Below the pieces are notes generated by a model. That model did not search any database. It was not told the DNA's origin and saw only the letters and a program-made list of their open reading frames with translations. Positions 2,990 through 59,710 of a stretch of DNA of 59,710 bases are shown here, piece after piece. Within the stretch, counting starts at the first letter, position 1; each line of letters opens with the position of its first letter. Position numbers and translations under genes: made by a program. The stretch comes from a virus (taxonomy: Duplodnaviria; Caudoviricetes), in the IMG/VR virus record IMGVR_UViG_3300022917_000001, positions 1-59,710 of that record. One strand, 5' to 3'.

Positions 2990-3081
2990 TGCCTGTGTTC
3001 GTCTCCTTGGTCGTGAGGATGGGTCGTAGGGTTTGGGGTGGGGACGGGCCAGGGATCAGCTGGCCCGTCCCCTTCCTCGTG

Positions 3082-19784: not shown

Positions 19785-20015
19785 GTTTACCCGCCGGGTT
19801 TACGGCCGGCGAAGCCGATTTTGCGCTGGCCTACGCGGGATCTCGGTGGTTCTGACGTGGCCGAACGCCGACTAGGCCCGCGTAGGCCAGCAAGTTCTGC
19901 ATATTTCACCGGAACGTGGTAGCTGCCGATCTTCAACGGTATAGACGCTGTTCAACGGCGTTGGACGGGCGACACTGTGCCGTTAGGATGGTGCGATCCG
20001 CCCTTTACTCGCCGG
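19785..20015. other. Candidate attP and int promoter region
   Basis: TTTAC(N)NGCCGG repeats, 15-bp inverted repeat, TTCAACGG x2, TTGGAC-N17-TAGGAT. Confidence 0.45.
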
Positions 20016-20032
20016 AAACGATCCGAGGCCCC

Positions 20033-43560: not shown

Positions 43561-43566
43561 CGCGGG

Positions 43567-44148: not shown

Positions 44149-44156
44149 CGTGATCA

Positions 44157-44190
44157 CTCCCGTTTCGGGATGCAGCGCACCCCGTTCCGG
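44157..44190 (-). promoter_or_regulatory. Twin-hairpin leader motif over terS RBS
   Basis: CCCGGAACGGG-N7-CATCCCGAAACGGGAG. Confidence 0.7.
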
Positions 44191-44196
44191 GAGGCG

Positions 44197-44751
44197 CTAG
44201 GTCAACAGCCAGTCCAGAACCCCGGACAGGTCCGCCAACGTTGAGGGGCAGCGGCCGAACCGCGTGCCGGTGACCGCGATGAAGCGGCCGGTGCCGTAGC
44301 ACTCCACGCCGTCCAACCGGCGCCCGTGCTCAACCCGTCCGCGCCCCCACACGTGCAGGCCCGTCCCCGACTGCGAAATCTCGGTGTACGTACTCGGGCA
44401 GCGCGCCAGGATCTCCCGGCCGCGCGCCGTCAGCGCGCCGTCGACGAGGCAGTGGTCAAGGTCTAGGCAGATGATGCCGTCGCCGTTCAGGACGAACCCG
44501 CGGCGCGGCAGCGGCTTCACCGCCGAGAACGGCGACCAGGTGGCCGGGTCGGTCGACTTCGCCGGACGCCCCTTCGGGGTCAACGGCACCTTCGACGGCG
44601 AATGCGTCACCCACCGGTCCAGCCCGCGCAGTCGCGCCGGGATCGAGTTCCGGTGCGCCCGCGCGCGACACGCACCGGAGCAGAACCGCGCGTGCGCCCG
44701 AGCCGTCACCGGCAGGTCGCTCCCGCACTGCTCGCAAGGCCGTCGCTGCAT
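44197..44751 (-). CDS. Zn-finger + minimal primase-polymerase (NrS-1-like AEP) domain
   Basis: CEQC..FCSGAC; STDPATWS, CLDLDHC, EISQSGTGLH, RFIAVTG. Confidence 0.82.
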   Translation of the reverse strand: MQRRPCEQCGSDLPVTARAHARFCSGACRARAHRNSIPARLRGLDRWVTHSPSKVPLTPKGRPAKSTDPATWSPFSAVKPLPRRGFVLNGDGIICLDLDHCLVDGALTARGREILARCPSTYTEISQSGTGLHVWGRGRVEHGRRLDGVECYGTGRFIAVTGTRFGRCPSTLADLSGVLDWLLT

Positions 44752-44988
44752 GGCCCAAGTCTACCGGCCGCGTACGTTTTTAGGTCGCTGAGCAGGTAGA
44801 ACGCAGGTCTCGATCCGATGACCGGCTCAGTGTCCGCCTGCTGTCGACGGGGATCAAAACGCGGCATCCTAGGCCCGACGGGTGGCTGATTCGGTGCCTC
44901 AACCCCAGGTATCGCGCCCCAGAGCGGAATCCCCAGACCCGTACGCACCGCGAGGCCCAGCAACTTCCCGGTAATCCGGGGTGGTACC

Positions 44989-45007
44989 CCAGGGGGGACC
45001 CCCCTGG
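44989..45007. repeat. Palindrome in candidate cos/packaging region
   Basis: CCAGGGGGG-A-CCCCCCTGG. Confidence 0.6.
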
Positions 45008-45013
45008 TAGGGA

Positions 45014-45781
45014 CTACCCGATGAGCGCGAGTTGATCTCCTGTGAGCCTGTCGCCCTTGCGTGAGTTGCACAGGAAGTGTGCTGCTTGGGCATTCACTGG
45101 TTCGTGGGTGCCGCCCTGTGCCAACGGGATGATGTGGTCCACGGTGGGTGCGAGCGGATGCGGTACGACGACGTCTCGCTTGAGCTTCTTCGTGCACAGC
45201 TTGCAGCGCCAGCCGTCGCGTTCATAGATCTGCTCGGGGCTGACGTTGGCTACGAACTGTCCGCGCTTGCAAGCGTCGCGTCTGCTGCTGTGTGCCCGTT
45301 GCTTGCAGACCAGCGTGCAGTATCGCTGGCCTTGGCGTTGTGCGAAGTAGGTCGAGTTGCACCGTACGCATGTGGCCTTGCGTGCGGCGTGTTGGTCGGG
45401 CAGTTGGGTTGATCGGCTCGGATGCCTGTCGGGTACTGGTGTGCTTGGCCAGGTGCCGTGGTTGAGGTACTGCTTGCACCTACCGCTGCATGCTGTACGC
45501 CGATAACTGGTGTGGTGTCCGCGCTCTACCTCTGTGCCGCAGACGATGCATGCGGTGACCTTGCGCTGTTGCTCGCGCCATGTGGCCATGTAGTTGGCCC
45601 GCTGGGCTGCGCTGTCCTTCACCTGCTGGGCGATCCTGCCGTCGGCCTTGCGCTGGGCGTTGTAGCCGCGGCTTGCGCAGAGGGGCGTGCAGTACTTCGC
45701 CTTGCTGGTGCGTGAGCTGAAGGGCGTACTGCACATGGTGCAGATGCACGTCTTGAGCGGTGAGGCTTTAGGCTTGGTCAC
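45014..45781 (-). CDS. HNH endonuclease with multiple Zn fingers
   Basis: IYERDGWRCKLC, TVDHIIPLAQGGTH..N..AHFLCNSRK. Confidence 0.92.
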   Translation of the reverse strand: MTKPKASPLKTCICTMCSTPFSSRTSKAKYCTPLCASRGYNAQRKADGRIAQQVKDSAAQRANYMATWREQQRKVTACIVCGTEVERGHHTSYRRTACSGRCKQYLNHGTWPSTPVPDRHPSRSTQLPDQHAARKATCVRCNSTYFAQRQGQRYCTLVCKQRAHSSRRDACKRGQFVANVSPEQIYERDGWRCKLCTKKLKRDVVVPHPLAPTVDHIIPLAQGGTHEPVNAQAAHFLCNSRKGDRLTGDQLALIG

Positions 45782-45849
45782 GTCGGTCTGCTTTCATCAG
45801 ATCGGCCATGCCCCGGGAGTGTTAGCGCACTCGCCGGGGTCTGTTCATT

Positions 45850-46209
45850 CTACTTGGGACTGATCAGTCCGGGGTGTGGTTCGGTGGGTCTCTTGGTGCT
45901 GATGCGGACGCGTGCGGCGTTGCCTTGTTTGCTGCTGCGTCGGTCGTGGTGCCAGGAGCAGAGGGTGCGTGCGTTGTTGGGGCTGTGGTCGTGTGGGTCG
46001 CCGACGTGGTCGACGTCTGCTCCTCGCTCGCTGCACCTGTCGCTCAGCGCGTAGGCGCCTGCGAGGTAGGCAGGGAAGCCGCCGTCATCTTGGTTCTCGA
46101 GCCATGTGCATGCGTGGCCGTCGCGCTTGAGGACGGTGGGTCTGGTGTGCGCACGCCACTCGGGTGGGAGTTGGTCGCGTCTGTTGCTGTCTGCCCATCC
46201 GCCTGGCAT
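45850..46209 (-). CDS. Packaging-associated HNH endonuclease
   Basis: LPPEW..VLKRDGHAC, DVDH..DHS..N..LCSWHH. Confidence 0.85.
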   Translation of the reverse strand: MPGGWADSNRRDQLPPEWRAHTRPTVLKRDGHACTWLENQDDGGFPAYLAGAYALSDRCSERGADVDHVGDPHDHSPNNARTLCSWHHDRRSSKQGNAARVRISTKRPTEPHPGLISPK

Positions 46210-46216
46210 GGCTACC

Positions 46217-46468
46217 TCAGTCGATGTCTGCTGCCTGGCAGGCCGCCACTGCTGTGGACTGGAGTGCCTCGCAGCCCTGCACAGCGTCGTGGTCGAGTCG
46301 CTGTGGCCCTTCACTGCCGAGGATGAGCCAGGGGTACTGCTCGTCCATGTCGTTGACGGGAGCCCAGCGGATGGCGATCTCGCGGGGGTGGTTCCTGTTC
46401 TGCCAGCGTGGGAACACGACCAGCGTTCCGAGTGGTGCGGATGCGGGGTCGCTGAGCGGGTTGGCGAT
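46217..46468 (-). CDS. Hypothetical protein, apparent ATC start
   Basis: GAGGTAGCC leader followed by ATC; fills gap exactly. Confidence 0.5.
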   Translation of the reverse strand: MANPLSDPASAPLGTLVVFPRWQNRNHPREIAIRWAPVNDMDEQYPWLILGSEGPQRLDHDAVQGCEALQSTAVAACQAADID

Positions 46469-46470
46469 GG

Positions 46471-46743
46471 CTACCTCGGCTGGTGCCGGGTCGGCTTGGC
46501 CCACACCAGAGCGGCCCATTCGTTCGCTGAGCATGTGCGTCCTCGCGTCTCTGCTTCGGCGGCGTCGTCCCAGGTGCCCGTATGCACGGGCCATACGTCC
46601 CACAGGACTGGGTTGTCGTGGTCGTGCTCGATGAGGACGCCTGCCTGTGCGGGCTTGTTGTCTGGGCTGAGGTAGCGCGTGGCGCGCAGGGTGTTGCGGA
46701 ACTGGTTGATGCCCTCGGGTGTGGTGTTGGTGAGGGCGGTCAT
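46471..46743 (-). CDS. Hypothetical protein (90 aa)
   Basis: Operon position. Confidence 0.65.
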   Translation of the reverse strand: MTALTNTTPEGINQFRNTLRATRYLSPDNKPAQAGVLIEHDHDNPVLWDVWPVHTGTWDDAAEAETRGRTCSANEWAALVWAKPTRHQPR

Positions 46744-46745
46744 GG

Positions 46746-47027
46746 CTACTCAACTGCCTCGTAGGTGGCGGCGAAGATGTCGGGCTTGCAGGGGTACAGC
46801 TCACCTTGGACGCCACGGATCAGCATGTCGTCGGCCTGCGCGGTCATGGTGCCTTCGAGCGTCTTGATCGCGATGTGGTCGTTGAAGAACACGACCTTGC
46901 CGTTCTCGTAGCCGTCGTTCAGCCACGTGGGCAGCTCTCCCCAGTAGTCAGTTGCCAGCTGGATGGCTTCCTGTACGGGGATGGCCTGGATCTCGACGAG
47001 CTTCTTGCGGTACGTGGCGGCGGTCAT
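46746..47027 (-). CDS. Conserved phage protein (PGDYG-like)
   Basis: IKTLEGTM..IRGVQGELYPCKPDIFAATYE. Confidence 0.85.
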   Translation of the reverse strand: MTAATYRKKLVEIQAIPVQEAIQLATDYWGELPTWLNDGYENGKVVFFNDHIAIKTLEGTMTAQADDMLIRGVQGELYPCKPDIFAATYEAVE

Positions 47028-47034
47028 GGTGCTC

Positions 47035-47844
47035 CTAGGCGAGGGTGTGGGCGAGAGCGAGTACTCCGGAGCCGAGGGCTACGGCGAGCACGGCCTTCAC
47101 GGTCAGGACGCACCCGGCGGCGGTCTGGGACTTCACCGTGACGGTGACCTTCCCGAGGATCGCGGTGTCGGGGCTGGTGCGGATGTCGTAGGTCGCCGAC
47201 GGCATCGGGGTGTCCCAGGTGATCGGCAGGTCCACGCTCGCGTTCAAGGCCAAGAGCGGGACGGCGACGCGGCCGAGGCGTTCGACGGTCTGACGGGCGG
47301 CCAGCGCCGTGACCTGAGCTGCCAGCGCGGCGTTCGCGGCTTCGAGAGCCACCAAGCGGGCTGTGAGCGCCGTAACGGCCGCAGTGGCGGTGTTGGCTGT
47401 CCCGGTGGCGGTTGCGGCTTCGCTGCGGGCGCTGGCGGCTCGTGAGGCGGCGTCAGCGGCGGTGTCGCGGGCTTGGAGCGCGGTCGCGTTCGCACTGGCG
47501 ATTCCTGCGGCCGTCGAGGTCTGGGCGGCGGCGAGCTGGTCGAGCCGGGCGGCCTGCGCCGCATGGTCAGCTTGCTCGGCGGTCCGTGTGTCGGCGACCG
47601 CCTGCCGTAGCGCTTCGTGCTCGGCTGCGGCTGCCTGCTGGAACGGGGTCAGCTGCGCGGCGACTTGGTCGAGTTGGGACAGCTTGGTGTTGACCGCGGC
47701 GTTGGCCTGTTCCATCGCGGCCTTTTGGGCGGCGAGGTTCGCGGCGACTTGCTGCTGGTCGGCAGGCAGCGTTGAGGCGAGCGTGTCGAGTGCGGCACGG
47801 GTTGCCGGGTCGGGGAGGGTCGGCACCCACGCGATGAGCTTCAT
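47035..47844 (-). CDS. Ala-rich coiled-coil protein with C-terminal beta domain
   Basis: Long heptad region then ITWDTPMPSATY. Confidence 0.75.
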   Translation of the reverse strand: MKLIAWVPTLPDPATRAALDTLASTLPADQQQVAANLAAQKAAMEQANAAVNTKLSQLDQVAAQLTPFQQAAAAEHEALRQAVADTRTAEQADHAAQAARLDQLAAAQTSTAAGIASANATALQARDTAADAASRAASARSEAATATGTANTATAAVTALTARLVALEAANAALAAQVTALAARQTVERLGRVAVPLLALNASVDLPITWDTPMPSATYDIRTSPDTAILGKVTVTVKSQTAAGCVLTVKAVLAVALGSGVLALAHTLA

Positions 47845-48137
47845 GAGGTGCGCTCCACGGACACGGTGGCTGCTGCGGCGCTGATGAGGCGCACGGTGGT
47901 GCCGCCGGCGGTGTCGGGTTCGACGTCTTCGCGGGCGGAGTTGGGTGGGATGACGTGGGTGTTCGACCCGCCGATGGTGGCTGCGCTGCCGTCGACGGTG
48001 AAGTACACCGGCTGGGTGGCGGCGAGCACGATGATGGCGACTGCTTCGCAGTCGTCGGCGAATTCGACCGTGGTGGCTTGTCCGGCGGTGAGGGTGATGT
48101 TGTGGGCTGCGACGTTTCCGGCTTCGACGTGGACCAC
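47841..48137 (-). CDS. Small beta-sandwich protein
   Basis: VYFTVDGSAAT; coupled. Confidence 0.75.
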   Translation of the reverse strand: MVHVEAGNVAAHNITLTAGQATTVEFADDCEAVAIIVLAATQPVYFTVDGSAATIGGSNTHVIPPNSAREDVEPDTAGGTTVRLISAAAATVSVERTS

Positions 48138-48150
48138 GTGCCTCTCCTTG

Positions 48151-48300
48151 TCAGCGGTCGACGGGGCAGCGCGGGTGGTGCCAGGCGAGGACTTCGGCGG
48201 GGCGCGCGCGGAGGGGCGCGGTGTCGAGGTTTTGCTGGCACCAGGGGCAGGTCATGTGGAGCCAGATGAGGCGTCGGAGCAGCGCGCGGATCCGGGTCAC
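48151..48300 (-). CDS. Small Cys/His protein (49 aa)
   Basis: CPWC..HHPRC; GTGA coupling. Confidence 0.45.
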
Positions 48301-49418
48301 ACGGGCGTGCCGAGGTTGGTGAGCTCGATCTCGGATGGGTAGGCGGCGGAGCCGATGGTGATGCCGGTCCCGGCCCGGTAGAGCAGGGCGAGGGTGACGT
48401 TGCCGCTGACGATGTCTCCGGCTTCGACGACCCAGGTTTGGCCGCGCATGGTGCGGGAGTAGGCGCCGCCGAGGTACATGCCGCCGTGCCCGTTGGGGGA
48501 TTGGGTGCTGGTGCGGGAGGAGGCGTAGCGGATCGGGGTGGCGCTGCCGTTGATGGCGGCGAGGTCGAACTCGTATCCGCTGTCGCCGGGGTTGGCGATG
48601 AGCGCGGGTTCCCACCGGAGGATGTTGCCTGCGGCGGCGGGGATGGTGACGCGGTAGGCGGCGGGGCAGACGGTCCATGCGCCGCCTGAGCCGCTGCTGG
48701 TGGTGAAGCTGGTGAGGATGAGGCCGGTGTTGGCGCGGCGGGTGGCTGCGCTTGTTCCGGCGGGGCCGGTTGCTCCGGTCGCTCCGGCTGGCCCTTGGGC
48801 ACCAGTAGCGCCGGTGGCTCCGGGTGCGCCGTCGTTGCCTGCGGGGCCTTGTGGGCCTGTCGCGCCGGTGGCGCCTGCTGGTCCGGTCGTTCCTGTGGTT
48901 CCTGCCGGGCCTTGCGCGCCGGTGGGGCCTGTTGGGCCCTGCGCGCCGGTGGGGCCTGCGGGGCCTTGGGGTCCGGTTGGGCCGGTGCCGCCTGCGCCTC
49001 CGTGTTCGGCGAGGTACTCGGCCACAAACTCCTCGAGGCCGGTGATGTCGCCGGTGGTGTGGAGGTGGTGCAGGAGGGCGAAGAACTCGACCTGGGCGAT
49101 GCTGCCTGCGGTGCCGTATGTGGCCGCGAAGGTGAGTGGCCCGGCGCCAGCTTCTACGGGGAGGAGGTAGACGTCGTTGAGGACGTCGGTGGTGATGCGG
49201 ACGATGTAGGCCCAGGGGGCGATGGGGAGCGCGATGCTGAACGCCCCGGCGGTGACCGGGGCGGTGAGGTGCTTGTCGTTGCCGACCACCACGTTGTCGT
49301 CGAGGTCGCGCAACACGTGGGGGAGCCGGAATTCGAGGGTGCCTGTTCCGGCTGCGCCGTCGAGTCCGGTGATGGTGCCGGTGTAGGTGCGGGTGGTGAT
49401 GCCGTTGGGGAGGGCCAC
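48297..49418 (-). CDS. Collagen-like fibre protein
   Basis: About 28 contiguous G-X-Y triplets between beta-rich domains; GGAGG RBS before GTG 49418. Confidence 0.88.
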
Positions 49419-49575
49419 GTTCGTCCTCCCTGCGGGTGGGGTTGCCACGGCTCCCCGGTTGCAGCCGCCGCCGGTCTGGGTTCCGGGGTGCCGTGGCGTT
49501 CTCGACCCCGCCGCACCAGCAGGGGAGTTGGGGCCCGACGTGGCGCGCCAGGGCTCGGGAGTCCTGCACGTCGGG

Positions 49576-49652
49576 TGGTGGCGACGGCCGGATTTGAACC
49601 GGCGACCTACGGGTTATGAGCCCGCCGAGCTACCGGACTGCTCTACGTCGCT
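49576..49652 (-). tRNA. tRNA-fMet (CAT), initiator type
   Basis: 77-nt cloverleaf, CAT anticodon, GGG/CCC anticodon stem, unpaired A1:C72, TTCAAATCC, encoded CCA. Confidence 0.93.
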
Positions 49653-49704
49653 GTGACATGCGGAAGCCCCGGCCGCCTCGCAAGCAGTCGGGGCTTCGTG
49701 TGGA

Positions 49705-49841
49705 CTGAATCTCGGTCAGGGTGAGGGGAACCACTGCCAACGGTTCCCGCCGGGGTCTAGACCGGTGTTGCAGCTGTTGGCTGGCCGCGAGCCGGTGTGC
49801 CTCCCGCCACCCGTTCGGGACCCACCCTGATCGAGATTCAG
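49705..49841 (-). ncRNA. Candidate structured RNA
   Basis: 19-bp closing stem (1 mismatch) enclosing further hairpins; intergenic. Confidence 0.5.
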
Positions 49842-49908
49842 GCCGGTTATGCCGTGTGCGGGCATACCTCTGGATGGGTGGGATCATGAACTGTCACGCC
49901 GGGATTCG

Positions 49909-50292
49909 TCAAGCGGAGCGGTGTCGTTGGGCGCGTCGCCTGCGTTGGGCGGCGATGTGATCGAGGACGTCGCCGAGCCGGTAGACGGTGCGGTTGTCGT
50001 CGGTGGTGTGCCGGGGGATGTGTCCGCGGGCAGCCCATTGGCGGATTTGTTCGGCGCGGAGGGCTCCGGCGAAGTGCTCGACGAGTTGGGGCGCGGTGAG
50101 CACGGCGTTGAGGTCGACCGGTCCGCTGGCAGGGATGATCCAGGGTTGGCCGACGTCGATGGCGCGCTGGTCGAGGGCTGCGCACGCGGTGGGGTCGACG
50201 GCGAGCAGCGCGCTCCGGTAGTCGCGGGCGGTGGTGCGGGCCTGGTCGAGCGGGCTGTCGCCAGCGACGGGCCAGCGGCGGGGCTTCTTCAT
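49909..50292 (-). CDS. HTH DNA-binding protein, candidate late regulator
   Basis: EQIRQWAARGHI..VYRLGDV; last gene before late region. Confidence 0.75.
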   Translation of the reverse strand: MKKPRRWPVAGDSPLDQARTTARDYRSALLAVDPTACAALDQRAIDVGQPWIIPASGPVDLNAVLTAPQLVEHFAGALRAEQIRQWAARGHIPRHTTDDNRTVYRLGDVLDHIAAQRRRRAQRHRSA

Positions 50293-50549
50293 GGGCGGCC
50301 CGCCTTCGCGTAGTGCTCGTTGATCAGTGGGGCGATGACGTGGATGGACTCCCAGATCCAGATGCCGAGGATGCTGGCGCGGCAGTCGTAGCACTCGCGG
50401 GCCAGCCATTTGTTCGGCTTCCAGGAGCCCTCGCGGTAGCGGCGCACCCAGTACTGGCAGCGTTCGGACGGCTGTGGGGGTGGCTCGGTCCAGTAGGTCT
50501 CTAGGTTGCCGACGGGCGGCGGCTTGTGGCCCCACGGCGGGGTGGTCAA
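50289..50549 (-). CDS. Hypothetical protein (86 aa)
   Basis: TTG start with GAGG RBS, coupled. Confidence 0.55.
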   Translation of the reverse strand: MTTPPWGHKPPPVGNLETYWTEPPPQPSERCQYWVRRYREGSWKPNKWLARECYDCRASILGIWIWESIHVIAPLINEHYAKAGRP

Positions 50550-50713
50550 ATCCGTTCCTCCCCCTTGGCCAGGGGCTCTAGGGCCCTGAGCGATTCCCAG
50601 GAGACGTCGTCGTCTGCCCACCAGACTTGGGCTTGGTTGCCCTCGATCCGCTGGATCTCGCCCTCCAGTCCGATGGCGGGGCACCACACGAGGTCCTTGA
50701 CGTTGAGGGTCAT
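50546..50713 (-). CDS. Small SH3-like protein
   Basis: LNVKDLV..GEIQRIEGNQAQVWW. Confidence 0.55.
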   Translation of the reverse strand: MTLNVKDLVWCPAIGLEGEIQRIEGNQAQVWWADDDVSWESLRALEPLAKGEERI

Positions 50714-50820
50714 GGCCATCCCAGTGCAGCCCGGATGATGGTGAGGACGACGGCGACGGCGAGGAGCACAACGAACGCCCATAGGCCGAGTCCCAATGCA
50801 AACTCCCGCAGCGCGCTCAC
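50710..50820 (-). CDS. Single-TM peptide (36 aa)
   Basis: MSALREFALGLGLWAFVVLLAVAVVLTIIRAALGWP; coupled both sides. Confidence 0.5.
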   Translation of the reverse strand: MSALREFALGLGLWAFVVLLAVAVVLTIIRAALGWP

Positions 50821-51122
50821 CAGCTTCGCTCCCACGGCCGCCGGTCGCCGACCTCTGCTGCCGCGTCACGTGCCCCGTCGACCAGCCGGGCGAGGATTCC
50901 CTTGAGTCGGTCTCGCTCGGTTTCGGCTGCTGCGGCCCGTTTGATGGTTTCCGTCAGCTGTTCGGTCAGGGTGGCGTCCGCACCGCGACGTCGGGCGGCC
51001 GTGATCTCGTCGGCTGTTTCTGGGGCGAGCCCGCAGGTCCGGCAGGGCCGTCCGTGCTGGTAGTCGGCGGTGACGTTCGAGCCGACCGTGTGGCAGCCGG
51101 GGCACTCCATCTTGTTGCTCAT
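50817..51122 (-). CDS. Zn-ribbon + coiled-coil protein
   Basis: CPGC..CRTC. Confidence 0.7.
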   Translation of the reverse strand: MSNKMECPGCHTVGSNVTADYQHGRPCRTCGLAPETADEITAARRRGADATLTEQLTETIKRAAAAETERDRLKGILARLVDGARDAAAEVGDRRPWERSW

Positions 51123-51889
51123 GCGTTGACCTCGGCTCCGTAGGCGCGGGCGAGGACACCGGCCAGCGCCTCGTATTCCTCGAGGCTCATCCGGTGCCCG
51201 CACCGGACGCAGTCGACTTTGGGTCCGCCTTCGGGGTGTTCGAGGGAGAGCCGTTCGCACCTCGGGCACGGGGTCCAGAGTCGTCGGGTGTGCTGGGTGC
51301 GCCCGGCCAACTCGGTGACCTGGTCGTGCAACCCGATCAACGCGATCGCGCCCGCCACCCCGTCCTCTTCGGAGTGGACGATCGGGTTGCGGCCGGAGAG
51401 GGTTTCCTCGCGGCCGTCGACCCGCGCCACCGCCATGCTCGGCAGGGAGAGCAGGACGGGCCACCGGCCGGTGATCCACCCGGACGCCGACCGAACCCTG
51501 TCCCCTGGGCGGGCGGTCTCGAAGTAGCCGAACCCGCTGGCTTCGGCGACCGGGGCGGCCCACAGGTCGAGTTCGAACACGATCGCGGCCTGGAGGGCTT
51601 CGACGTTGAGGCGGATGGGGACGGGGAGTTCGCGGGTGCCGCCGATGGGTGCGTCGTTGCTGCGCGATGTCTTCCCGAGCAGTTCCGACAGCTCCGTGTA
51701 GTCCGCAGGCAACTGCTCGACGGCGCGTTTCGCGAGGGTGGTGTCCATGCGGCACAACCCACCCGGCGTGGTGGCCCATGCGGCGACGTGGACGGTGCCC
51801 GTGGTGTGGGCGTCGAGTTGGATGGTTTCGCGACGGGCGTCGGCACAGCGGGGGCCCCGGCGGCAGCGCAGCGCGGTCTCGTCGGTCAT
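51119..51889 (-). CDS. Zn-binding protein, possible transcription factor
   Basis: N-terminal Cys cluster, C-terminal CPRC..CVRC. Confidence 0.75.
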   Translation of the reverse strand: MTDETALRCRRGPRCADARRETIQLDAHTTGTVHVAAWATTPGGLCRMDTTLAKRAVEQLPADYTELSELLGKTSRSNDAPIGGTRELPVPIRLNVEALQAAIVFELDLWAAPVAEASGFGYFETARPGDRVRSASGWITGRWPVLLSLPSMAVARVDGREETLSGRNPIVHSEEDGVAGAIALIGLHDQVTELAGRTQHTRRLWTPCPRCERLSLEHPEGGPKVDCVRCGHRMSLEEYEALAGVLARAYGAEVNA

Positions 51890-52311
51890 GGCTGCCTCCC
51901 TGGCACGGTCATCTCGATCGGTGGACGGCTGCTGAACGTCACCCCGTAGTGCTCGGCGACGAGTTGGTAGGTGCTGCACGGCCAGCCGGGCTGGTCGGGT
52001 TCGTAGCCGCTGACGTCGCACCCGTCGCAGTCGCCGTCGACGTACTGGTGGTGTTCGAGGACCTGACGGGACGGTTCGTCGACGAGGGCTAGCAACGCGG
52101 TGTGCTGCTGCCCTACAGCGGCTTGGTACCGGTCGTGCTCGGCCTGCCGGTCGGCCATGAACTGGTTGATGCGCTCTTGGCGGATCCGTTCGTCGGCCTG
52201 TCGGCGGAGCTTGGCCTGCCGGTTGGCTTGCAGTTCGAAGGCAAGGTCGAGCGGTACACCGAGCAGAGTGCTGGGCGTGGGCCGGTACGGCTGAGTCCAC
52301 GGGGTGTTCAT
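51886..52311 (-). CDS. Hypothetical protein (141 aa)
   Basis: H..CDGC..WPCSTY. Confidence 0.7.
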   Translation of the reverse strand: MNTPWTQPYRPTPSTLLGVPLDLAFELQANRQAKLRRQADERIRQERINQFMADRQAEHDRYQAAVGQQHTALLALVDEPSRQVLEHHQYVDGDCDGCDVSGYEPDQPGWPCSTYQLVAEHYGVTFSSRPPIEMTVPGRQP

Positions 52312-52313
52312 GG

Positions 52314-52526
52314 CTACACGTTCTCGGCGCGGTCGAAGCCGAGCTTGGTGATGCAACTCCCGATCGGGTTGCCGAGGTCGGCCAGCTTGAACGGGATGGC
52401 CGCGCCTCGAACGATCGCGTCGTCGGGGAGGCCGAGCGCGGTGGCGGCGTCGACGAGTTCGCGGAGTTCGGCGAGGGTGAGCGTGCGGTGGTCGCTGGCG
52501 GCGTGGACCGAGGGAAGGGCGATCAT
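52314..52526 (-). CDS. Hypothetical protein (70 aa)
   Basis: Coupled. Confidence 0.65.
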   Translation of the reverse strand: MIALPSVHAASDHRTLTLAELRELVDAATALGLPDDAIVRGAAIPFKLADLGNPIGSCITKLGFDRAENV

Positions 52527-53332
52527 CGGGTGCTCCGGGGGTTGATGGCGCGGGGTGCGCGCCGCTGCTGTTGGGGGCCGGTGTTCCGCCGCTTCCGCAA
52601 TGCCAACGCCCGGGCCTGCGGATCAGCGGGAAGCGGCTTCTCCACCACACCCGCCTCAACGAACGCGGTGATGTTCGCGGCTGCCGCCTGCCATGCCGAC
52701 CGGATCGCAGCGGCCGTGCCGTTCAGCGCGGGGGTGAGGTCCTGGACCGTCGCGTTGACACGGCTGATGAGGATGTCGTAGCTGGCTCGCACGAACTCTT
52801 GGGCGGCCAGCAGATCAGCAGGACTCGGCGTGCCGAGCGCAGCAGTCCAGTCCTCGGTGGGCACCCACCGGTCGCCGTTGAACGTGACCCTTTCCGGCTC
52901 GCCAGCGCCACGGACCTCCATGTGCTGACCACGACGGGGCCTGCGCAGGTCGGGCATGATGTCGACGTAGACCACGCCGTCGACGTTGTAGGCGACGCTC
53001 GCTGTGGCGATGTCGTCTGTGAGGTCCATGCCCATCGTCACGGGGGCGTCGGCGGTGCCGAGCCGTGACCAGTCGCCGCCTCCGGGCGACGTGTCAACGG
53101 GCGCGACGAACACCTCGGCGCGCGACGACAGTGGCCACAGGTCTCCGGATGGGTGGAAGCGCGGAGGGAAGTGCTCGAACGGCGACACCGGCTCGACGGC
53201 CGCGCCGACCCTCCGTGCGGCCCACGCCTTCTGGCACTTCTCACGGCAGAACAGGTCCGACACGCTGTCGCCCATCGGGCCCTCACAGAAGTGACACCCC
53301 GTCGCACGATCGATCGCCTCGAAGATGTCCAC
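52523..53332 (-). CDS. Zn-finger hypothetical protein (269 aa)
   Basis: CHFC..FCREKCQ; RNTGP. Confidence 0.7.
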   Translation of the reverse strand: MDIFEAIDRATGCHFCEGPMGDSVSDLFCREKCQKAWAARRVGAAVEPVSPFEHFPPRFHPSGDLWPLSSRAEVFVAPVDTSPGGGDWSRLGTADAPVTMGMDLTDDIATASVAYNVDGVVYVDIMPDLRRPRRGQHMEVRGAGEPERVTFNGDRWVPTEDWTAALGTPSPADLLAAQEFVRASYDILISRVNATVQDLTPALNGTAAAIRSAWQAAAANITAFVEAGVVEKPLPADPQARALALRKRRNTGPQQQRRAPRAINPRSTR

Positions 53333-53334
53333 GG

Positions 53335-53520
53335 TCAGTGCACCGCCCTGTGGAAGGCCAGGCAGTGCGACCCGACGGACACGGTCACCCCGGCGAGGTG
53401 CTCGAACCGGTCGAACACCGGTCCGATCGCGAACCACGGTGGCGTCCCGTACACGCGGGACATCTCGAACGGCGTGATCCACTGACGGATTCTGCTGTCA
53501 CTGCGTAGCAAGCTGATCAT
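53335..53520 (-). CDS. Hypothetical protein (61 aa)
   Basis: GGGGAG RBS. Confidence 0.45.
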   Translation of the reverse strand: MISLLRSDSRIRQWITPFEMSRVYGTPPWFAIGPVFDRFEHLAGVTVSVGSHCLAFHRAVH

Positions 53521-53599
53521 GGCGGCGGCTCCCCCTGGGCGCTGGAGGGTGTACGACACCGGGAGACCCGGTGCACGCGAGTATGCCACCTGAAATGCG

Positions 53600-53646
53600 A
53601 AAACCCGAGACACCCGCCAGTCGCAGGCACCGGCAGGCCTCGGGTC
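53600..53646 (-). terminator. Probable terminator of the GntR operon
   Basis: Imperfect stem acccgag..ctcgggt followed by TTTT on minus strand. Confidence 0.55.
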
Positions 53647-53666
53647 AGCGAATTGTCACTGGACTG

Positions 53667-53915
53667 CTACTCGTCACCCCAGGCGCCGAGCCGCCGCATC
53701 GGCGTCACCGTCACCGGCGCGACCCCCAGAAACCGCCGATGCGCGCCAGCGTTAGCCGCCGCGTAGTTGTCGCGGCACGCCACCGCACCCGGAACACGGC
53801 CAGCGGCGTGCTCGGCTTCCTCGCGAGTCTCGAACTCCCCGCCGAGCCACCGTCCGGACGCGTCACGGACGATCCACGGCAACACCTCAGTGGGGCTCGG
53901 GTACCTCGTCGTCAC
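53667..53915 (-). CDS. Hypothetical protein coupled to GntR gene
   Basis: GTGA overlap, GGAGGAG RBS. Confidence 0.65.
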   Translation of the reverse strand: MTTRYPSPTEVLPWIVRDASGRWLGGEFETREEAEHAAGRVPGAVACRDNYAAANAGAHRRFLGVAPVTVTPMRRLGAWGDE

Positions 53916-54748
53916 GGCTCCTCCTCCTGGTCGTCCTCGCCAGTGTCCGTCACCTGCGGCGACTCCACCGCCGGATCAGGCGGCCACCCCGCCGACGCGT
54001 CCCGCCCGAGCACGATCACCGTCTCGAACCGCGCGCCGTCCATGCGGGTGTCGTTCACCTCGACCGGCCGCCCGTCCTCAAGCGACGCCGTCCGCGCGAT
54101 CCGGACCAGCGCCGCCCCCGCTGGAACGTTCAAGCGTTTCGCCTCTGCGGCCGTTGCGCTGACCGCGCCCTGCGCCTCCACCGGATCCGCGAGAGGCCGG
54201 CCGAAGTGCTCCTCGATCCGGTCGTAGATCCCGCCCGGCCCGGTGATCGGCTCGCCGATGATCGGCAGTTCGCTGTGGAGCCAGCCGGGCAGGTAGCTGG
54301 TTGCGATCTGCAGCGGCGTCGGCCGCGTCCGCTTCGTCCCAGGCTTGCCCAACACCCGGTCCCGCACGACCACCGGCGACCCCGGCGGCACCTGCAGGCG
54401 GAGAGCGATGTCCGGGGACGCGGGCAACACCTCGACCGTCGGTTTCCCGACCAGCCGCAGGCCTTGGCCTTCGGGGTCGAAGTAGTAGCCGAACCGGTCG
54501 CGGAACATCGCCCGGTGTCGTGCGATCCGGATCAGGGCGGGGCCGAGTACGACCGTGCCGCGGCCGTGTGACCCGCGGACCAAGCCCTCGGCGGCCAGTG
54601 TGCGGTAGGCGGTCCGGACGGCGGACTCGCCGACACGCCAGAGTTCTTGGGCGGCTTTGACGGTGGGCAGGCGGTCCCCTGGAGCGAGCTCACCTGTGGT
54701 GATCCGCTCCCGCAGGTGTGCGGTGAGGTCGTCGGCCGGTTGCGTCAT
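53912..54748 (-). CDS. GntR/HutC-family repressor with UTRA domain (KorA/TraR/KorSA-like)
   Basis: GELAPGDRLPT..AYRTLAAEGLV..GRGTVV; ATSYLP, GPGGIYDRIEE, GRPVEVND; divergent from traB operon. Confidence 0.92.
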   Translation of the reverse strand: MTQPADDLTAHLRERITTGELAPGDRLPTVKAAQELWRVGESAVRTAYRTLAAEGLVRGSHGRGTVVLGPALIRIARHRAMFRDRFGYYFDPEGQGLRLVGKPTVEVLPASPDIALRLQVPPGSPVVVRDRVLGKPGTKRTRPTPLQIATSYLPGWLHSELPIIGEPITGPGGIYDRIEEHFGRPLADPVEAQGAVSATAAEAKRLNVPAGAALVRIARTASLEDGRPVEVNDTRMDGARFETVIVLGRDASAGWPPDPAVESPQVTDTGEDDQEEEP

Positions 54749-54855
54749 CGCCATCCTTCTGGTCAACTCGTGGCACCATACTTGCAGGCGCACCGCTAAG
54801 TCTGCAATCCTAGCCCGGGCACACACCGCCACCGCTTAACCACGCAGGGGGACCC

Positions 54856-55005
54856 GTGACCAGCGCAACCGCAACGTGCACCCACCCCTCGACAACCACC
54901 AGCCACGTCAACACCCCACACGGCCCCGCCATCTACACCCAGTGCACGAACAACGCCTGCAACCACCTCGTCAGCGCCGAATACGCCACGAACCAGCGAC
55001 GCTGA
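54856..55005 (+). CDS. Small Cys/His protein (49 aa), first gene of transfer operon
   Basis: AGGGGG RBS; CTH..CTNNACNH; absent from ORF track. Confidence 0.5.
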   Translation: MTSATATCTHPSTTTSHVNTPHGPAIYTQCTNNACNHLVSAEYATNQRR

Positions 55006-55030
55006 CCCAGCGGAACCGGAGAACACCACA

Positions 55031-55186
55031 ATGGGCACCGCCCGCCAGAAGACCGCCAAGCAGATGAAGGCCGCGCTCGACCGCGGTGACCTCGACACCG
55101 CCCAGAAAGCCCTCCACCAGGCTGGCAAGCAGGACCCCACCCTCGCCGCCGACATCGCCAACCACTTCAAGGAGCAGCGCCGATGA
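55031..55186 (+). CDS. Small helical protein (51 aa)
   Basis: GGAG RBS, ATGA coupling; absent from ORF track. Confidence 0.65.
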   Translation: MGTARQKTAKQMKAALDRGDLDTAQKALHQAGKQDPTLAADIANHFKEQRR

Positions 55187-55428
55187 CCACCGACGACCTC
55201 ATGGACCCCTACGGTGCCGCCAAGCGCGCAGACACCTACCTGCTGGAAATCGCGGCCCAGCCGCCGGTCACCCGCAAGGAGCACACCCAGGCCTCGATGG
55301 CCATCCTCGCCCTCGCCTCGGTCCTGCTGACCGGGTTCGAGGAGTGGCAGAAGCAGAGGTCCCGTGACCTGACCCAGGTCGCCGGTGTGCACGCGGCTCT
55401 CGCCCTCGTGGCGCCGGACGTCCACTAG
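55183..55428 (+). CDS. Hypothetical protein (81 aa)
   Basis: AAGGAG RBS. Confidence 0.7.
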   Translation: MTTDDLMDPYGAAKRADTYLLEIAAQPPVTRKEHTQASMAILALASVLLTGFEEWQKQRSRDLTQVAGVHAALALVAPDVH

Positions 55429-55521
55429 CCCCCGGTCGGGGCGGGTGACCTCCCGCCAAGAAGAACCCCCGCCCCGACCGGGCCCTCAACCCAGCCAACA
55501 CCTGACCAGAGAGGTCCGCCC

Positions 55522-55833
55522 ATGCTCCCGGGTACCGGCCGCGCACTCAAACGCGCAGCCACCCTCGCCGTCCTCCTCGGCACCTCGCTCGCCCCTGCTG
55601 CCGTCGACTCCCACCCGGCGCTGGTCATCTGGCACGACGGGCCCTCCGTATCCGGACGCGGACCCGACCAGCAGCACTACGTCCTCTGCGTGCCCGCGGC
55701 GGACCCGGTCGACGGTCCGCTGACCGAGGTCCGCGTTGCCGCGGCCGACGCCCACCCGGTACCTGACCCGGCTACCGGGCTGCACCGGTACAGCGAAGGC
55801 CGCCCGTGCCCCGACCCGTCGAACGAGGACTAG
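55522..55833 (+). CDS. Secreted/membrane-anchored small protein
   Basis: Signal-peptide-like N-terminus, GAGG RBS. Confidence 0.7.
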   Translation: MLPGTGRALKRAATLAVLLGTSLAPAAVDSHPALVIWHDGPSVSGRGPDQQHYVLCVPAADPVDGPLTEVRVAAADAHPVPDPATGLHRYSEGRPCPDPSNED

Positions 55834-55835
55834 CC

Positions 55836-56306
55836 ATGGGCACCAGCACCGTCGAGCTCACCGACGCCATCGACACCCTCGGCCTCGCCTACCACGAAGT
55901 CGGGCACGGTCTCGTCGCCCGCGCCAGCGGCATGGCCGTGCGACGACTGCGACTCGAACGCTCCTGGAGCGGCCGAGTCACCTGCGGCTACACCCTGCTC
56001 AAGCAGCCCGAACCCGACGCGGCCACCACGGTGTGGCGCGGGTACGCGGTGATGCTGTTCGCCGGGGTCACCGCCCAAGCCCGCTACCTCGACCAAGTCG
56101 GGGCTCTCACCAGCCGAGTCCAAGCCGTCCTCGACAAGAACACCGGCGACTTCGAGGACTGGCTGCAGCACCGCCACCTGTGCGGCATCACCGAATCCGC
56201 CGCCCGCCGAGCCGCCGCCGCGTACTGCGACACCCACTGGCCGCGGATGACCCGCCTCGCCGAACGCCTCGCCACCAACTTCCAGCTGTCGGGGAGCGCA
56301 CTGTGA
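55836..56306 (+). CDS. Stand-alone HExxH Zn peptidase (M41/FtsH protease-like domain)
   Basis: AYHEVGH, LFAG, GDFE. Confidence 0.75.
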   Translation: MGTSTVELTDAIDTLGLAYHEVGHGLVARASGMAVRRLRLERSWSGRVTCGYTLLKQPEPDAATTVWRGYAVMLFAGVTAQARYLDQVGALTSRVQAVLDKNTGDFEDWLQHRHLCGITESAARRAAAAYCDTHWPRMTRLAERLATNFQLSGSAL

Positions 56307-56569
56307 CCAGCCTCTGGATCGCCGCACGTCGGGCGTGGTGGTGGGCCAGTTACCGCCTGATCCTGCTGGTGCTGTCGCTGCTGGCACTGCTGCGGTGGGT
56401 GCTGTTCGGGCTAGCCGTGCTGGCGCACCGCTGCCACTCGCGGCTCGCCGCTCACGGCCAGGTCGTCGCCGACACCCTCGGCGCCACCGCCTACAGCAAC
56501 CAGACCAAGCCGAACAACGACCGCTACGCGCGCGTCGTCTACTCCCTCCTCGACCCCAAGGACCTCTGA
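56303..56569 (+). CDS. Small membrane protein (88 aa)
   Basis: Coupled both sides; hydrophobic N-half. Confidence 0.7.
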   Translation: MTSLWIAARRAWWWASYRLILLVLSLLALLRWVLFGLAVLAHRCHSRLAAHGQVVADTLGATAYSNQTKPNNDRYARVVYSLLDPKDL

Positions 56570-56922
56570 TGGCCAAGCCCAACCCGTTCGACGAGCTCAC
56601 CGAGATGGAACTGCGGGACCCCGACGCGCTCTACGAGTTCTGCGACATCGTCCGCAACCTGTCTCGCGACTTGTCGTTCGCGTTGCAGTTCCAGGCCGAG
56701 ATGCTGCAGGCCGACCTGGGCACCGTGAAGGTCACCGAAGGCCGTTTCGGGGCGCTGTCGTCCAAGGCGCGCGCCAAGACCGTCGCGTCCTGCCTGCGGC
56801 TCGGCGCGGAGGCCGTGACCCACGCCGGGCGACTGTCGGTGAAGTGCTACTCGCTGTTCAAGCGCTACTACCTGACCGAAGAGCCGACCGAGAGCAAGCC
56901 CCGTTTCAAGCTGCCTGCCTGA
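56569..56922 (+). CDS. traA: TraA-like plasmid transfer protein (117 aa)
   Basis: Helical, KARAKTVA..L motif, immediately upstream of traB as in Streptomyces plasmids. Confidence 0.6.
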   Translation: MAKPNPFDELTEMELRDPDALYEFCDIVRNLSRDLSFALQFQAEMLQADLGTVKVTEGRFGALSSKARAKTVASCLRLGAEAVTHAGRLSVKCYSLFKRYYLTEEPTESKPRFKLPA

Positions 56923-56947
56923 CCACCCCTGATCGGAGGAGCACGTC

Positions 56948-58909
56948 GTGTCGAAGAACCTGGTGGCCGCAGCCAAGGATCGGGCGGTGAAGCAGGCCGC
57001 CAGCCGGGCGTCTGTCGTGGTGCGCCCGGCGGCGGCGTTGACCGGCGAGCTGGGTCTGTCGGTGGCGCTGTGGGCGGCCGCCGGGCCGGAGTCGCTGCCG
57101 TGGATGACCCCCGCCCTGTCGCTGTCCACTGCGGGGTTGACCGCGATGGTGTGGCACATCGGCCGTGACCGCACCCCGGTTGGTCGGATCCTGGGCGTCG
57201 GCACCACGGCGCTGACCGGGGCGCACCTGATCGCCGCGTCCATCGTGGGCCCGTTCACGTCGCCGTTGATCGGGATGTGGGGGTGGCTGGGCGGGACCGC
57301 GGTCGCGGCGTGGGTGGTGCGGCTGTGGGTGGCCCGCGACGACGCCACCGTGCAGGGCGCCAAGGACCGGGCGTCGGGGTGGGACGACATCGCCGGGCGC
57401 ACCGGCGGCGCCCTGCAAGGTTCGCTGTTCCGCCCCAAGGAGGTCACGGCAGACAGCATGAAGGGCCCGTTGCAGTTGGAGCCGGGCGCCACGGTCAAGG
57501 ACGCCCAGACCTCGGGGGCGACACTCGCGTCGGTGCTGAAGTTGCCGCCGGGCGGGGTGACCATCACTCCCGACCCGACCGACGCGTCCAAGGGCGAACT
57601 GACCCTGGTGCGGGTTGACGTGCTACGAGACCTCGTCTCGTATGCGGGCCCCTCCGCGTTAGGCGGCACCCCGGTGCAGCCGTACCGGATCGGCCGGTAC
57701 CGCACCGCCAAGACCGCGCTCCTGCCGCTGCACATCCCGAAGTTCGGCGAGATCCACCTGCTGATCATGGGCATGACCGGCGCGGGGAAAACCTACGGCG
57801 CGTACATGCTGTTCGCCGAAGAGTTCACCCGCACCGACACCTACACGATCTACGTCGACACCGTGAAGGGCGCCCAGAGCTTGGGGCCGATCGCGGGCGG
57901 GATCCGGTGGGCGATGCGCACCGAGGCCGAAGCGCTCGCCTTGATGAAGGCGCTTCAGGACCGGGTGATCCCCGGCCGTGCCCAGTACCTCGGTAAGCGG
58001 AAGCTCAAGGTGTGGGAGCCGGGTTGCGGCCTGGTGCGGTTGCGTATCCACGTCGAGGAGGGCGCTGGCCTGTTCCTCGGGAACAAGGCGTTCACCCGCG
58101 TGCTGGAGCGGGCACGCTCTGTCGGTGTTCAGCTGACCGTGTCCTTGCAGCGCCCCTCCTACACCACGCTCGACGTGTCCGCGCGCTCCCAGTTCGGTGC
58201 GGTGTGGTGCTTCGGCGTGGCCGAGACCGAGGACGCCCGGTTCGCGATGCCCGAGGAGGTGCTCAATGCCGGCGCGGACCCGAGCGTGTGGAAGAACAAG
58301 CTGCCGGGTTGCTCCTACGTGGTAGCTCCGCAGATCGACGACGACGACCACGTGGTGCCGCTGCGCGCCGAGCTCCCCGCCGACGACGAGTTGGAGATGC
58401 TCGCCGAGTACGCGCGGATCAACGGCGACGAGTTGGACGCGGTCACCGCCGGCCTGTTCGGCGAGCTCTACACCTCGAGGATTCCGGTGGCGGACATGCT
58501 GGCCGACGACACCACGCCGATCGTGATCGACCTCGACGACGAGGACGACGCCCTGTTCGGTGACGAGAACGACGAGCCTGAGGCATGGGTGCCGTCGGAG
58601 GCGGATCCGGAGCCGAACGTGCAGCCCGACATCGACGATCCGATGGAGCGCCCGGCCAGCACGCTGACGTTCGGCGAGCGCGGCAAGGCCACGCCGGAGG
58701 AGGCCGCGGAGTTGTTCGAGACTCGGCTTCTGGGGCTGCAGCGGGCCGGGCAAGAGGAGGTCCGGGCCGCGGACATGGTCGAGGTCGCCCGCGCGGCGGG
58801 CCGGTCTCCGGCGTGGGTCTACAAGCAGCTCAAGCAGCGGGTGGCGTCGGGTCACCTGGTTCGCACGGACACCGGGTTCCGGTTCGCCCGAGCCCTCACC
58901 CCAGCATGA
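56948..58909 (+). CDS. traB: TraB-type FtsK/SpoIIIE conjugative DNA translocase
   Basis: N-terminal TMs, HLLIMGMTGAGKT Walker A, IHVEE Walker B, ARSVGV..SLQRPS, C-terminal wHTH GRSPAWVYKQL. Confidence 0.88.
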   Translation: MSKNLVAAAKDRAVKQAASRASVVVRPAAALTGELGLSVALWAAAGPESLPWMTPALSLSTAGLTAMVWHIGRDRTPVGRILGVGTTALTGAHLIAASIVGPFTSPLIGMWGWLGGTAVAAWVVRLWVARDDATVQGAKDRASGWDDIAGRTGGALQGSLFRPKEVTADSMKGPLQLEPGATVKDAQTSGATLASVLKLPPGGVTITPDPTDASKGELTLVRVDVLRDLVSYAGPSALGGTPVQPYRIGRYRTAKTALLPLHIPKFGEIHLLIMGMTGAGKTYGAYMLFAEEFTRTDTYTIYVDTVKGAQSLGPIAGGIRWAMRTEAEALALMKALQDRVIPGRAQYLGKRKLKVWEPGCGLVRLRIHVEEGAGLFLGNKAFTRVLERARSVGVQLTVSLQRPSYTTLDVSARSQFGAVWCFGVAETEDARFAMPEEVLNAGADPSVWKNKLPGCSYVVAPQIDDDDHVVPLRAELPADDELEMLAEYARINGDELDAVTAGLFGELYTSRIPVADMLADDTTPIVIDLDDEDDALFGDENDEPEAWVPSEADPEPNVQPDIDDPMERPASTLTFGERGKATPEEAAELFETRLLGLQRAGQEEVRAADMVEVARAAGRSPAWVYKQLKQRVASGHLVRTDTGFRFARALTPA

Positions 58910-58951
58910 TCAACAGAGCGGGGCGGGGCCCGCTCGCCCATCCCCCAGACC

Positions 58952-59127
58952 TGTCACCCCCACAGTCAGCCCGAGAGTGTGCGGTCAGAGGGGGTGAGAC
59001 GGGGGTGAATCACCCCCGTGACAACCAGGGTGAGACGGGGGTGACAAGGGGTGAATCCAGGGTGACACCGCAGGTGACAGGGGTGACAACCAGGGTGAAT
59101 CACCCCCACGTCACCCCGTCTCACCCC
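58952..59127. repeat. clt-like array of GGGTGA(CA) repeats (candidate TraB recognition sites)
   Basis: 9 forward GGTGA cores mostly 9-12 bp apart plus 5 reverse copies, directly after traB. Confidence 0.8.
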
Positions 59128-59154
59128 ACCACGACCACGCGAAAGGACCGCACC

Positions 59155-59710
59155 ATGACCACCGCCCTCACCGCGCCTGACGGAGGCTGGAAGAGTCGCC
59201 GCGCCCGCCGTCGGGCGGAACTCGCGCAAGCCATGAACCTCCTCACCGACGCCCGCCGCAAGCGGGCCACCCAGTCTGCGGCGGAGCGCGCCGCCGGGCA
59301 GTCCGAAGACCCGATGAGCTGGCCACTCCGCATCCTCGCCGGACTGGTCGCGCTGATCGTGCTCGCCGTCGCCGCCGTCATCGGTGTCGTCATCATCGGC
59401 GCCCAGATCGGCTTCTACCAGGCGAACCTCACCGTCAAGACCATCAGCTTCGCCGCCCTCGGCGTCGACACCCCGCTGGACCTGCCGACGTTCACCCCGA
59501 TCGCGACCGAGGGCGTGGTGTGGGCGACCACCCTGCTCGCGGTAGTGATGGTCCTGCTCAACCGCACCGCCACGCTGTGGACCCAGTCGATGTGGTTCTT
59601 CGCGTCAATCGCGGCGTTCGTGAACACCTGGCACTCGGTGTTCGAGGAGAAGGACCTGTTCGGTGGCCTGCTCCGTGGTGGCCTGTCGCTGGCGGGCCCG
59701 TTCTTGGTGC
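59155..59710 (+). CDS. 5' part of Spd/DUF2637-like membrane protein (continues to 1020)
   Basis: GAAAGGA RBS, ATG 59155, open through junction, several TM helices; missed by ORF track. Confidence 0.8.
   Translation, partial: MTTALTAPDGGWKSRRARRRAELAQAMNLLTDARRKRATQSAAERAAGQSEDPMSWPLRILAGLVALIVLAVAAVIGVVIIGAQIGFYQANLTVKTISFAALGVDTPLDLPTFTPIATEGVVWATTLLAVVMVLLNRTATLWTQSMWFFASIAAFVNTWHSVFEEKDLFGGLLRGGLSLAGPFLV

Follow-up and report, generated by a model that had tools for sequence, protein, structure and literature searches.

The analysed DNA, here called the window, is a stretch of 59,710 nucleotides with a G+C content of 69%. Its first 127 bases are identical to its last 127 (1-127 = 59584-59710), and it therefore represents a closed circle of 59,583 bp; the exact overlap falls within the gene that follows the repeat array described below. 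The IMG/VR record carries direct terminal repeats and a CheckV completeness of 100%. The window is a circular, complete siphovirus-type contig, for which the full gene set of a temperate siphovirus was found by PHROG matches:

19886-21280, integrase
41884-43566, large terminase (TerL)
tape measure protein of 1,304 amino acids
RecT, replication initiator and DnaB helicase
endolysin, tail proteins, major tail protein, capsid, scaffold, protease and portal

A plasmid-type cassette sits between the packaging side and the early genes. It comprises the following features, of which the last ones belong to a repeat array in the gap downstream of traB:

53912..54754, minus strand, regulator of the GntR/UTRA family in a TraR/KorA-like position (Pfam GntR 1.6e-14, UTRA 1.4e-18)
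55806..56306, plus strand, small HExxH protein (weak Peptidase_M50B-like match, 2.5e-05, below the cut-off)
56569..56922, plus strand, traA-like gene (NCBIfam plasmid_TraA, 7.8e-13, below the cut-off)
56948..58909, plus strand, traB, membrane-anchored FtsK-like translocase of double-stranded DNA with a C-terminal winged helix
59155..59710 and, across the junction, 128-1020, plus strand, downstream membrane protein of about 482 amino acids in the position of a spread protein
58952..59127, both strands, array of 14 (G)GGTGA cores with the consensus GGGTGA[C/G/A]A
58952..58959, minus strand, lone reversed copy GGGTGACA, 45 nt after the traB stop
58992..59101, plus strand, forward block of nine cores and one decayed copy with a period of about 11.2 bp
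59003..59015, palindromic node 1, GGGTGAATCACCC, present in L027 and L001 and absent from L004
59093..59105, palindromic node 2, GGGTGAATCACCC, present among the relatives in L027 only
59100..59126, minus strand, reversed block of three cores just 5′ of the ribosome-binding site of the next gene

Flanking DNA of close TraB relatives was available for three loci:

L001, Lentzea cavernae, TraB 63% identical
L004, genome G342, TraB 57% identical
L027, metagenome record, TraB 64% identical

Virion genes, an integrase and the traA-traB-array group all lie on one circular contig, as expected of a phage-plasmid. Logan contigs of run X1, which may be the source sample, tile positions 44000-59710 with an even depth of 38-41. 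One of them (12,652 nt) covers 46186-58837 with zero differences, and a second one (7,877 nt) spans from 58808 over the array to beyond the end of the window. These contigs, an independent assembly of the same reads, join the cassette to phage genes, which argues against a chimeric join. Among the public runs listed for the sequence, none is from RNA. A complete tRNA-Met gene (49576-49652, minus strand) is located between the packaging side and the conjugation cassette and is possibly a phage tRNA or the mark of an old junction. The read depth at this gene is inflated in all runs, since the tRNA is common to other organisms.

The traA-like protein is 76-78% identical in L001 and L027 and 42% identical in L004. 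Its start codon overlaps the stop codon of an ORF for a small membrane protein (ATGA, 56567-56571), which suggests translational coupling. The small HExxH protein is 62% identical in L001. The gene downstream of the array is preceded by AAGGA, located 8 nt upstream of its ATG at 59155, and its ORF reads through the 127-bp end overlap. The encoded membrane protein has no match in Pfam or PHROG and is unrelated to the corresponding protein of L027. Its C-terminal 56 amino acids are 64-65% identical to a domain encoded in the distant TraB loci L003, L005, L024 and L026, where the domain sits upstream of traB according to the coordinates, and this shared domain looks like a shuffled module of such cassettes. 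In addition, the region between the GntR gene and traA was analyzed for an operator of the regulator. The only 12-mer common to this region in three loci is CGACACCCTCGG, with two copies here, and it was dropped since both copies lie inside coding sequence, where they encode D-T-L-G. No perfect palindromes with arms of 7-8 nt were found in 54701-56600.

The TraB protein matches the NCBIfam profile plasmid_TraB (NF041214) with an E-value of 4.7e-115 and 385.5 bits over the profile positions 5-627 of 639. The score lies below the curated cut-off of 800 bits; judged by this alignment, the protein falls outside the equivalog range and is a clear full-length homologue. Its identity to the TraB proteins of Streptomyces plasmids such as pJV1 and pWTY27 amounts to 29-35%. 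The AlphaFold model based on 29 homologues (pLDDT 76) consists of N-terminal helices (residues 3-132), the motor (about 145-520), a disordered linker and a C-terminal helix-helix-helix-hairpin fold forming the winged helix (583-646). The best Foldseek matches of the motor are FtsK motor domains (6t8o, E 4.6e-15). The ORF contains the Walker A motif GMTGAGKT, and G278, G280, K281 and T282 are invariant. All the parts of an FtsK-like translocase were thus found, namely the N-terminal membrane helices, a motor of the FtsK type that contains Walker A, and the winged helix at the C-terminus, and TraB is intact as judged by its profile match and its model.

The last 79 amino acids of TraB were also modelled alone (pLDDT 85). 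They match the winged-helix domains of CRP/FNR and GntR-type regulators (Z 8.8/8.6/8.1, VIA), and the Foldseek rows for this domain are weak with a best E-value of 0.043. No Pfam match to the FtsK gamma domain (PF09397) was obtained up to E 10, and the lists of fold matches likewise contain generic winged helices and no FtsK gamma domain. In its model, the C-terminal domain thus resembles generic winged helices only. The predicted recognition helix comprises about the residues 621-634 (PAWVYKQLKQRVAS); it is invariant in alignment A3 and nearly so in alignment A1 (29 sequences).

The traB gene stops at 58907-58909 and the next ATG is at 59155, so the array fills the 245-bp gap between the two genes. 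The preliminary description, made from the letters of the sequence, had listed forward GGTGA cores at 58993, 59004, 59029, 59040, 59050, 59061, 59073, 59082 and 59094 as well as reverse cores at 58954, 59010, 59100, 59111 and 59121, and every one of them was recovered. It had also placed two palindromes, which proved to be GGGTGAATCACCC at the centres 59009 and 59099 as it gave them, and a degenerate copy near 59017, which is present as CCGTGACA at 59016-59023. The latter looks like a decayed copy, since the corresponding offset in L027 is occupied by a complete GGTGACA. The longer form GGGTGA is found in 13 of the 14 cores. After (G)GGGTGA, the 14 copies continue with C, G, A or T (6, 3, 3 and 2 copies) and then with A, T or G (8, 5 and 1 copies). 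Four of the five copies of GGGTGACA in the window fall in the array. The region has, in addition, a large inverted symmetry, with 81% complementarity between the arms 58979-59015 and 59093-59129.

The accumulation of the cores was compared with a Poisson mean derived from the rest of the circle. The 176 bp of the array contain 14 GGTGA cores with 0.77 being expected (P = 1.4e-13), and for GGGTGA the numbers are 13 and 0.18 (P = 3.7e-20, Poisson). In sliding windows of 200 bp the array reaches 14 cores, whereas the best stretch clear of the array and its flanks has 5.

The forward cores are spaced by 11, 25, 11, 10, 11, 12, 9 and 12 bp, with the 25 bp corresponding to two units across the decayed copy. 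Periods of 11.0-11.25 bp give a vector strength of 0.80-0.84, compared to 0.48 at 10.5 bp. The array had been called helically phased, and of this the rough periodicity stands; the period, however, is about 11.2 bp and not 10.5 bp, and the sites therefore drift around the helix instead of lying on one face.

A word-indexed protein search with TraB yielded 38 proteins at E <= 1e-10, of which 29 are 45-94% identical. The named species among these 29 close relatives are Lentzea cavernae and Saccharothrix violaceirubra. In 401 genomes of the family of Lentzea and Saccharothrix, 23 have a TraB match at E <= 1e-60, and 21 of these matches are distant (30-35% identity). Searches of genome contigs and of metagenome contigs yielded one locus each. 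A protein search of viral contigs retrieved no TraB relative, and the phage collection contained no TraB match. Around the traB gene of L001, no phage structural family was detected among the ORFs scanned with Pfam within 6 kb on each side.

A GGGTGA array directly after traB was identified in all three close relatives, with 15 (L027), 9 (L001) and 8 (L004) copies of GGGTGA in the 300 bp after the gene, and its place is identical in these loci, next to traB on the same element. Counted from the traB stop, the forward cores of L027 have the offsets 86, 97, 110, 122, 133, 143, 154, 166, 176 and 188, those of the window 86, 97, 110 (decayed), 122, 133, 143, 154, 166, 175 and 187. The offsets of the reverse cores are 47, 103, 194, 206, 216 and 228 in L027 and 47, 103, 193, 204 and 214 in the window. 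The layouts of both arrays are almost in the same register. A TCACC core at the offset of the lone reversed copy (+47) is found in L004 as well as in L027. In the reversed block, L027 has four TCACC cores, L004 three and L001 one, which according to a reading of its sequence is followed by decayed copies. Within the first 196 nt after the traB stop, the window and L027 differ at 52 positions; 10 of these differences affect the 60 positions of the cores and 42 the remaining 136 positions.

In the 9.7-Mb genome of L001 and in the 7.4-Mb genome of L004, the pattern GGGTGAN{3,7}GGGTGAN{3,7}GGGTGA is restricted to the traB site; the same pattern read backwards as a control gave one and zero matches, respectively. 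Pairs of the form GGGTGAN{3,7}GGGTGA are found 23 times in L001 and 22 times in L004, of which three and four are at the traB site; the backwards control, which ignores codon usage, gave 3 and 2, and the estimate from the composition is about 11 per genome. In viral DNA, the triple pattern was found at at least 120 loci, and no TraB relative is encoded among the matches listed. Four high-GC viral loci with the triple pattern were read individually and consist of unrelated repeats. In an unrelated viral contig (L040, about 1780-2080), repeats of GGGGTGACAC/GTGTCACCCC are clustered in both orientations within AT-richer DNA, and no TraB was found in the DNA of this contig that was examined.

A further relative was found in run X2 from a soil metagenome, in which traB and the array are about 93% identical. 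Its contig matches 56915-59166 with 162 differences and diverges at 59166, which is 11 nt into the downstream gene, so that a different gene follows the array. In its alignment to the window at 50814-59166, the stretch 53676-55424 with the GntR gene is replaced by 785 other letters. Judged from these sequences, the array is retained next to divergent or exchanged versions of the downstream gene, the GntR gene and traA.

The repeat words in the 300 bp after traB were counted in 26 loci; two of these, L005 and L026, are duplicates within a single genome. Each of the four loci whose helix reads SPAWVYK(Q/S)L contains 8-15 copies of GGGTGA, compared to 0-2 copies in the remaining 22. CGTCAG is found 3-6 times in each of the 15 loci with W(V/L/I)SG.L and five times in L024, whose C-terminus is unreadable. 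GTGTGC is present 3-4 times in the five loci with SW(A/S/V)SREL, while L018 with the helix SWTYKVL has eight copies of GTGACA and L023 uses yet another repeat word. Among the 26 loci, every one with a readable C-terminus has the word class that goes with its helix class. Such a correlation would be expected from a winged helix that recognises the word. It does not completely set TraB apart from the remaining cassette proteins; TraA is 76-78% identical in L001 and L027.

Clt regions hold direct 8-bp repeats that are recognised by TraB (PMC4447253, PMC4170104). In pWTY27 of Streptomyces sp. Y27, Tra binds a clt of 175 bp which overlaps the 3′ end of tra and contains four TGACACC, as described on the basis of EMSA and footprint, a requirement in cis and deletion (PMC3583192). 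In the locus of this plasmid (L153), four direct copies of TGACACC plus one inverted copy were found. Both sites have their repeats at the 3′ end of the transfer gene or immediately downstream of it, with direct as well as inverted copies, and the pWTY27 Tra is a full-length homologue with 31% identity that has the C-terminal ALTPA in common with TraB. They differ in the word (four direct copies of TGACACC versus 14 copies of GGGTGA[C/G/A]A), in the recognition helix (RPWVSARL versus PAWVYKQL) and in the setting, as the clt of pWTY27 lies on a plasmid and starts inside tra, whereas the array lies on a phage and starts only after the stop codon.

The clt of pJV1 consists of nine 9-bp direct repeats CCGCACA[C/G][C/G] and two pairs of inverted repeats (PMC3583192). 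It is similar in the number of repeats (nine) and in the mixture of direct and inverted copies, and its TraB is a homologue (H2, 32% identity). The clt of pIJ101 has a length of 54 bp and is located near korB and not after tra (PMC3583192). Both pJV1 and pIJ101 have a repeat word other than the one found here. For TraB of pSVH1, helix alpha-3 of the winged helix is described to read the 8-bp repeats of clt (PMC3583192, PMC4170104, PMC4447253). This system, with a hexameric FtsK-like TraB and a winged helix on 8-bp repeats, provides the mechanistic model used here, although its word and helix are different and it is a plasmid. The mixed orientation of the copies, which had been considered notable, is conserved here yet not unusual, since the clt loci of pJV1 and pWTY27 also have inverted repeats (PMC3583192).

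With the plasmid-phages pZL12/PhiZL12 of Streptomyces and PhiNon1 of Nonomuraea (PMC5431353, PMC3583192) no sequence relation of this phage was found, and no clt array is described for them in the available parts of these two papers. 

The KOPS of FtsK and the SRS of SpoIIIE are G-rich, polar 8-bp words which are read by the winged helix of the pump. KOPS are spread along the chromosome and set the direction. The array resembles them in having a G-rich word for a winged helix of the FtsK family and differs in forming one local cluster.

Taken together, a full-length TraB precedes the array, its anatomy corresponds to the published clt loci with several copies of a 7-9 bp word in direct plus inverted orientation, and it is kept with traB in three of three close relatives. 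The interpretation as clt, already proposed in the preliminary description, is supported by these points and further by the repeat word that tracks the TraB recognition helix in the 26 loci. The array is most likely the docking site of TraB, as predicted with considerable confidence from the comparison of sequences. Such sites are of a known kind, and this one is found within the genome of a complete tailed phage. In analogy to the plasmid systems, the C-terminal winged helices of membrane-bound TraB hexamers would dock on the repeats via the recognition helix PAWVYKQL. Docking would place the FtsK-like motor on the circular, double-stranded DNA of the element, which it would then pump into a neighbouring hypha or cell. 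The convergent orientation, in which the forward block is closed by reversed copies, may have some role in this; binding, loading, transfer and this role are what we infer from the arrangement.

Alternatively, the repeats could be an operator array, through which the GntR protein or some other repressor of the cassette controls the read-through from traB or a promoter of the downstream gene. In favour of this, only about 30 nt separate the end of the array from the next start codon, and the reversed cores are located at about -30 to -55. A dimeric regulator would match the palindromic nodes, and GntR repressors of tra operons are known (traR/korA, PMC4447253). However, the GntR protein is 54% identical in L001 and only 33% in L027, was not found in L004 with the query used and is replaced in X2, and its recognition helix differs among the loci (ESAVRTAY in the window, AQTTQNAF in L001 and RQTVQNAL in L027), yet the cores stay the same. 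L027 and X2 have unrelated downstream genes, no sigma-70-like promoter was detected in 58700-59300, and nine to ten copies in the same direction would be unusual for an operator. This regulation is therefore considered unlikely.

About ten direct repeats at a spacing of 11 bp are typical of plasmid centromeres and iterons. The style of the array would therefore also fit a site at which a partition or replication protein of a plasmid-like prophage binds repeats spaced by about 11 bp. The element is circular, and pWTY27 has such iterons elsewhere on the plasmid (PMC3583192). Against this, no partition gene was recognised in the cassette, the Rep and DnaB genes of the phage are about 12 kb away across the junction, and the array always travels with traB, with its word tracking the TraB helix, which makes such a function very unlikely.

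Even less probable is an element acting on the RNA level, with termination or stabilisation of the traB transcript by a long hairpin of the inverted copies. The potential for such a structure exists: there is a perfect inverted pair of 14 nt (58991-59004 / 59114-59127), and the RNA fold of 58940-59160 has -103.2 kcal/mol (z = -3.08). But the scan of 58700-59300 revealed neither a T-run nor a terminator-like site, and it is the core word that is conserved and not the pairing. Both palindromic nodes are missing from L004 and the second one from L001, and most forward cores are without a partner, as there are nine forward and five reverse copies. A hairpin would also leave the ten copies in the same direction unexplained.

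Finally, the least probable explanation is a translated array that forms a repetitive N-terminal extension of the downstream protein. In its favour, the downstream reading frame has zero stops across the array in all four loci (58909-59155 here, L027, L001 and L004), compared to 4-7 in each of the other two frames. Against it, all the downstream genes are preceded by a site of the AAGGA/GGAAG type located 7-9 nt from the start codon, the mismatches between the window and L027 show no bias for the third codon position (14, 20 and 18 at positions 1, 2 and 3) and the downstream proteins are unrelated. The open frame is not accounted for by the interpretation as clt.

If TraB binds the array, GGGTGA[C/G/A]A and PAWVYKQL would constitute a new specificity pair beside the few characterised ones, which are those of pJV1, pSVH1 and pIJ101 (PMC9513070) plus pWTY27 (PMC3583192). 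It would come from the clade of Lentzea and Saccharothrix and not from Streptomyces. The word and helix classes would then form a small table towards a recognition code of the TraB winged helix.

The phage setting matters more than the site itself. A complete phage with an apparently working pump and its address label would support a second, capsid-free route of spread in some actinophages, for which pZL12 is a published precedent in spirit. In a wider reading, a temperate siphovirus of an actinomycete other than Streptomyces, the nearest named TraB relatives being from Lentzea and Saccharothrix, would move its circular genome between hyphae or cells without virions by means of TraB and the clt array, and the convergent layout and the palindromic nodes would set the loading site and the direction of the pump as KOPS do for FtsK. 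As a whole, this scenario is tentative and rather doubtful.

Besides the cassette, an ORF at 1904-2515 on the minus strand has a weak match to a Pycsar effector (PycTM, 7e-05, below the cut-off). Together with the adjoining ORF at 2516-3055 on the same strand, for which no match was found, it may represent a defence-type gene pair of the phage.
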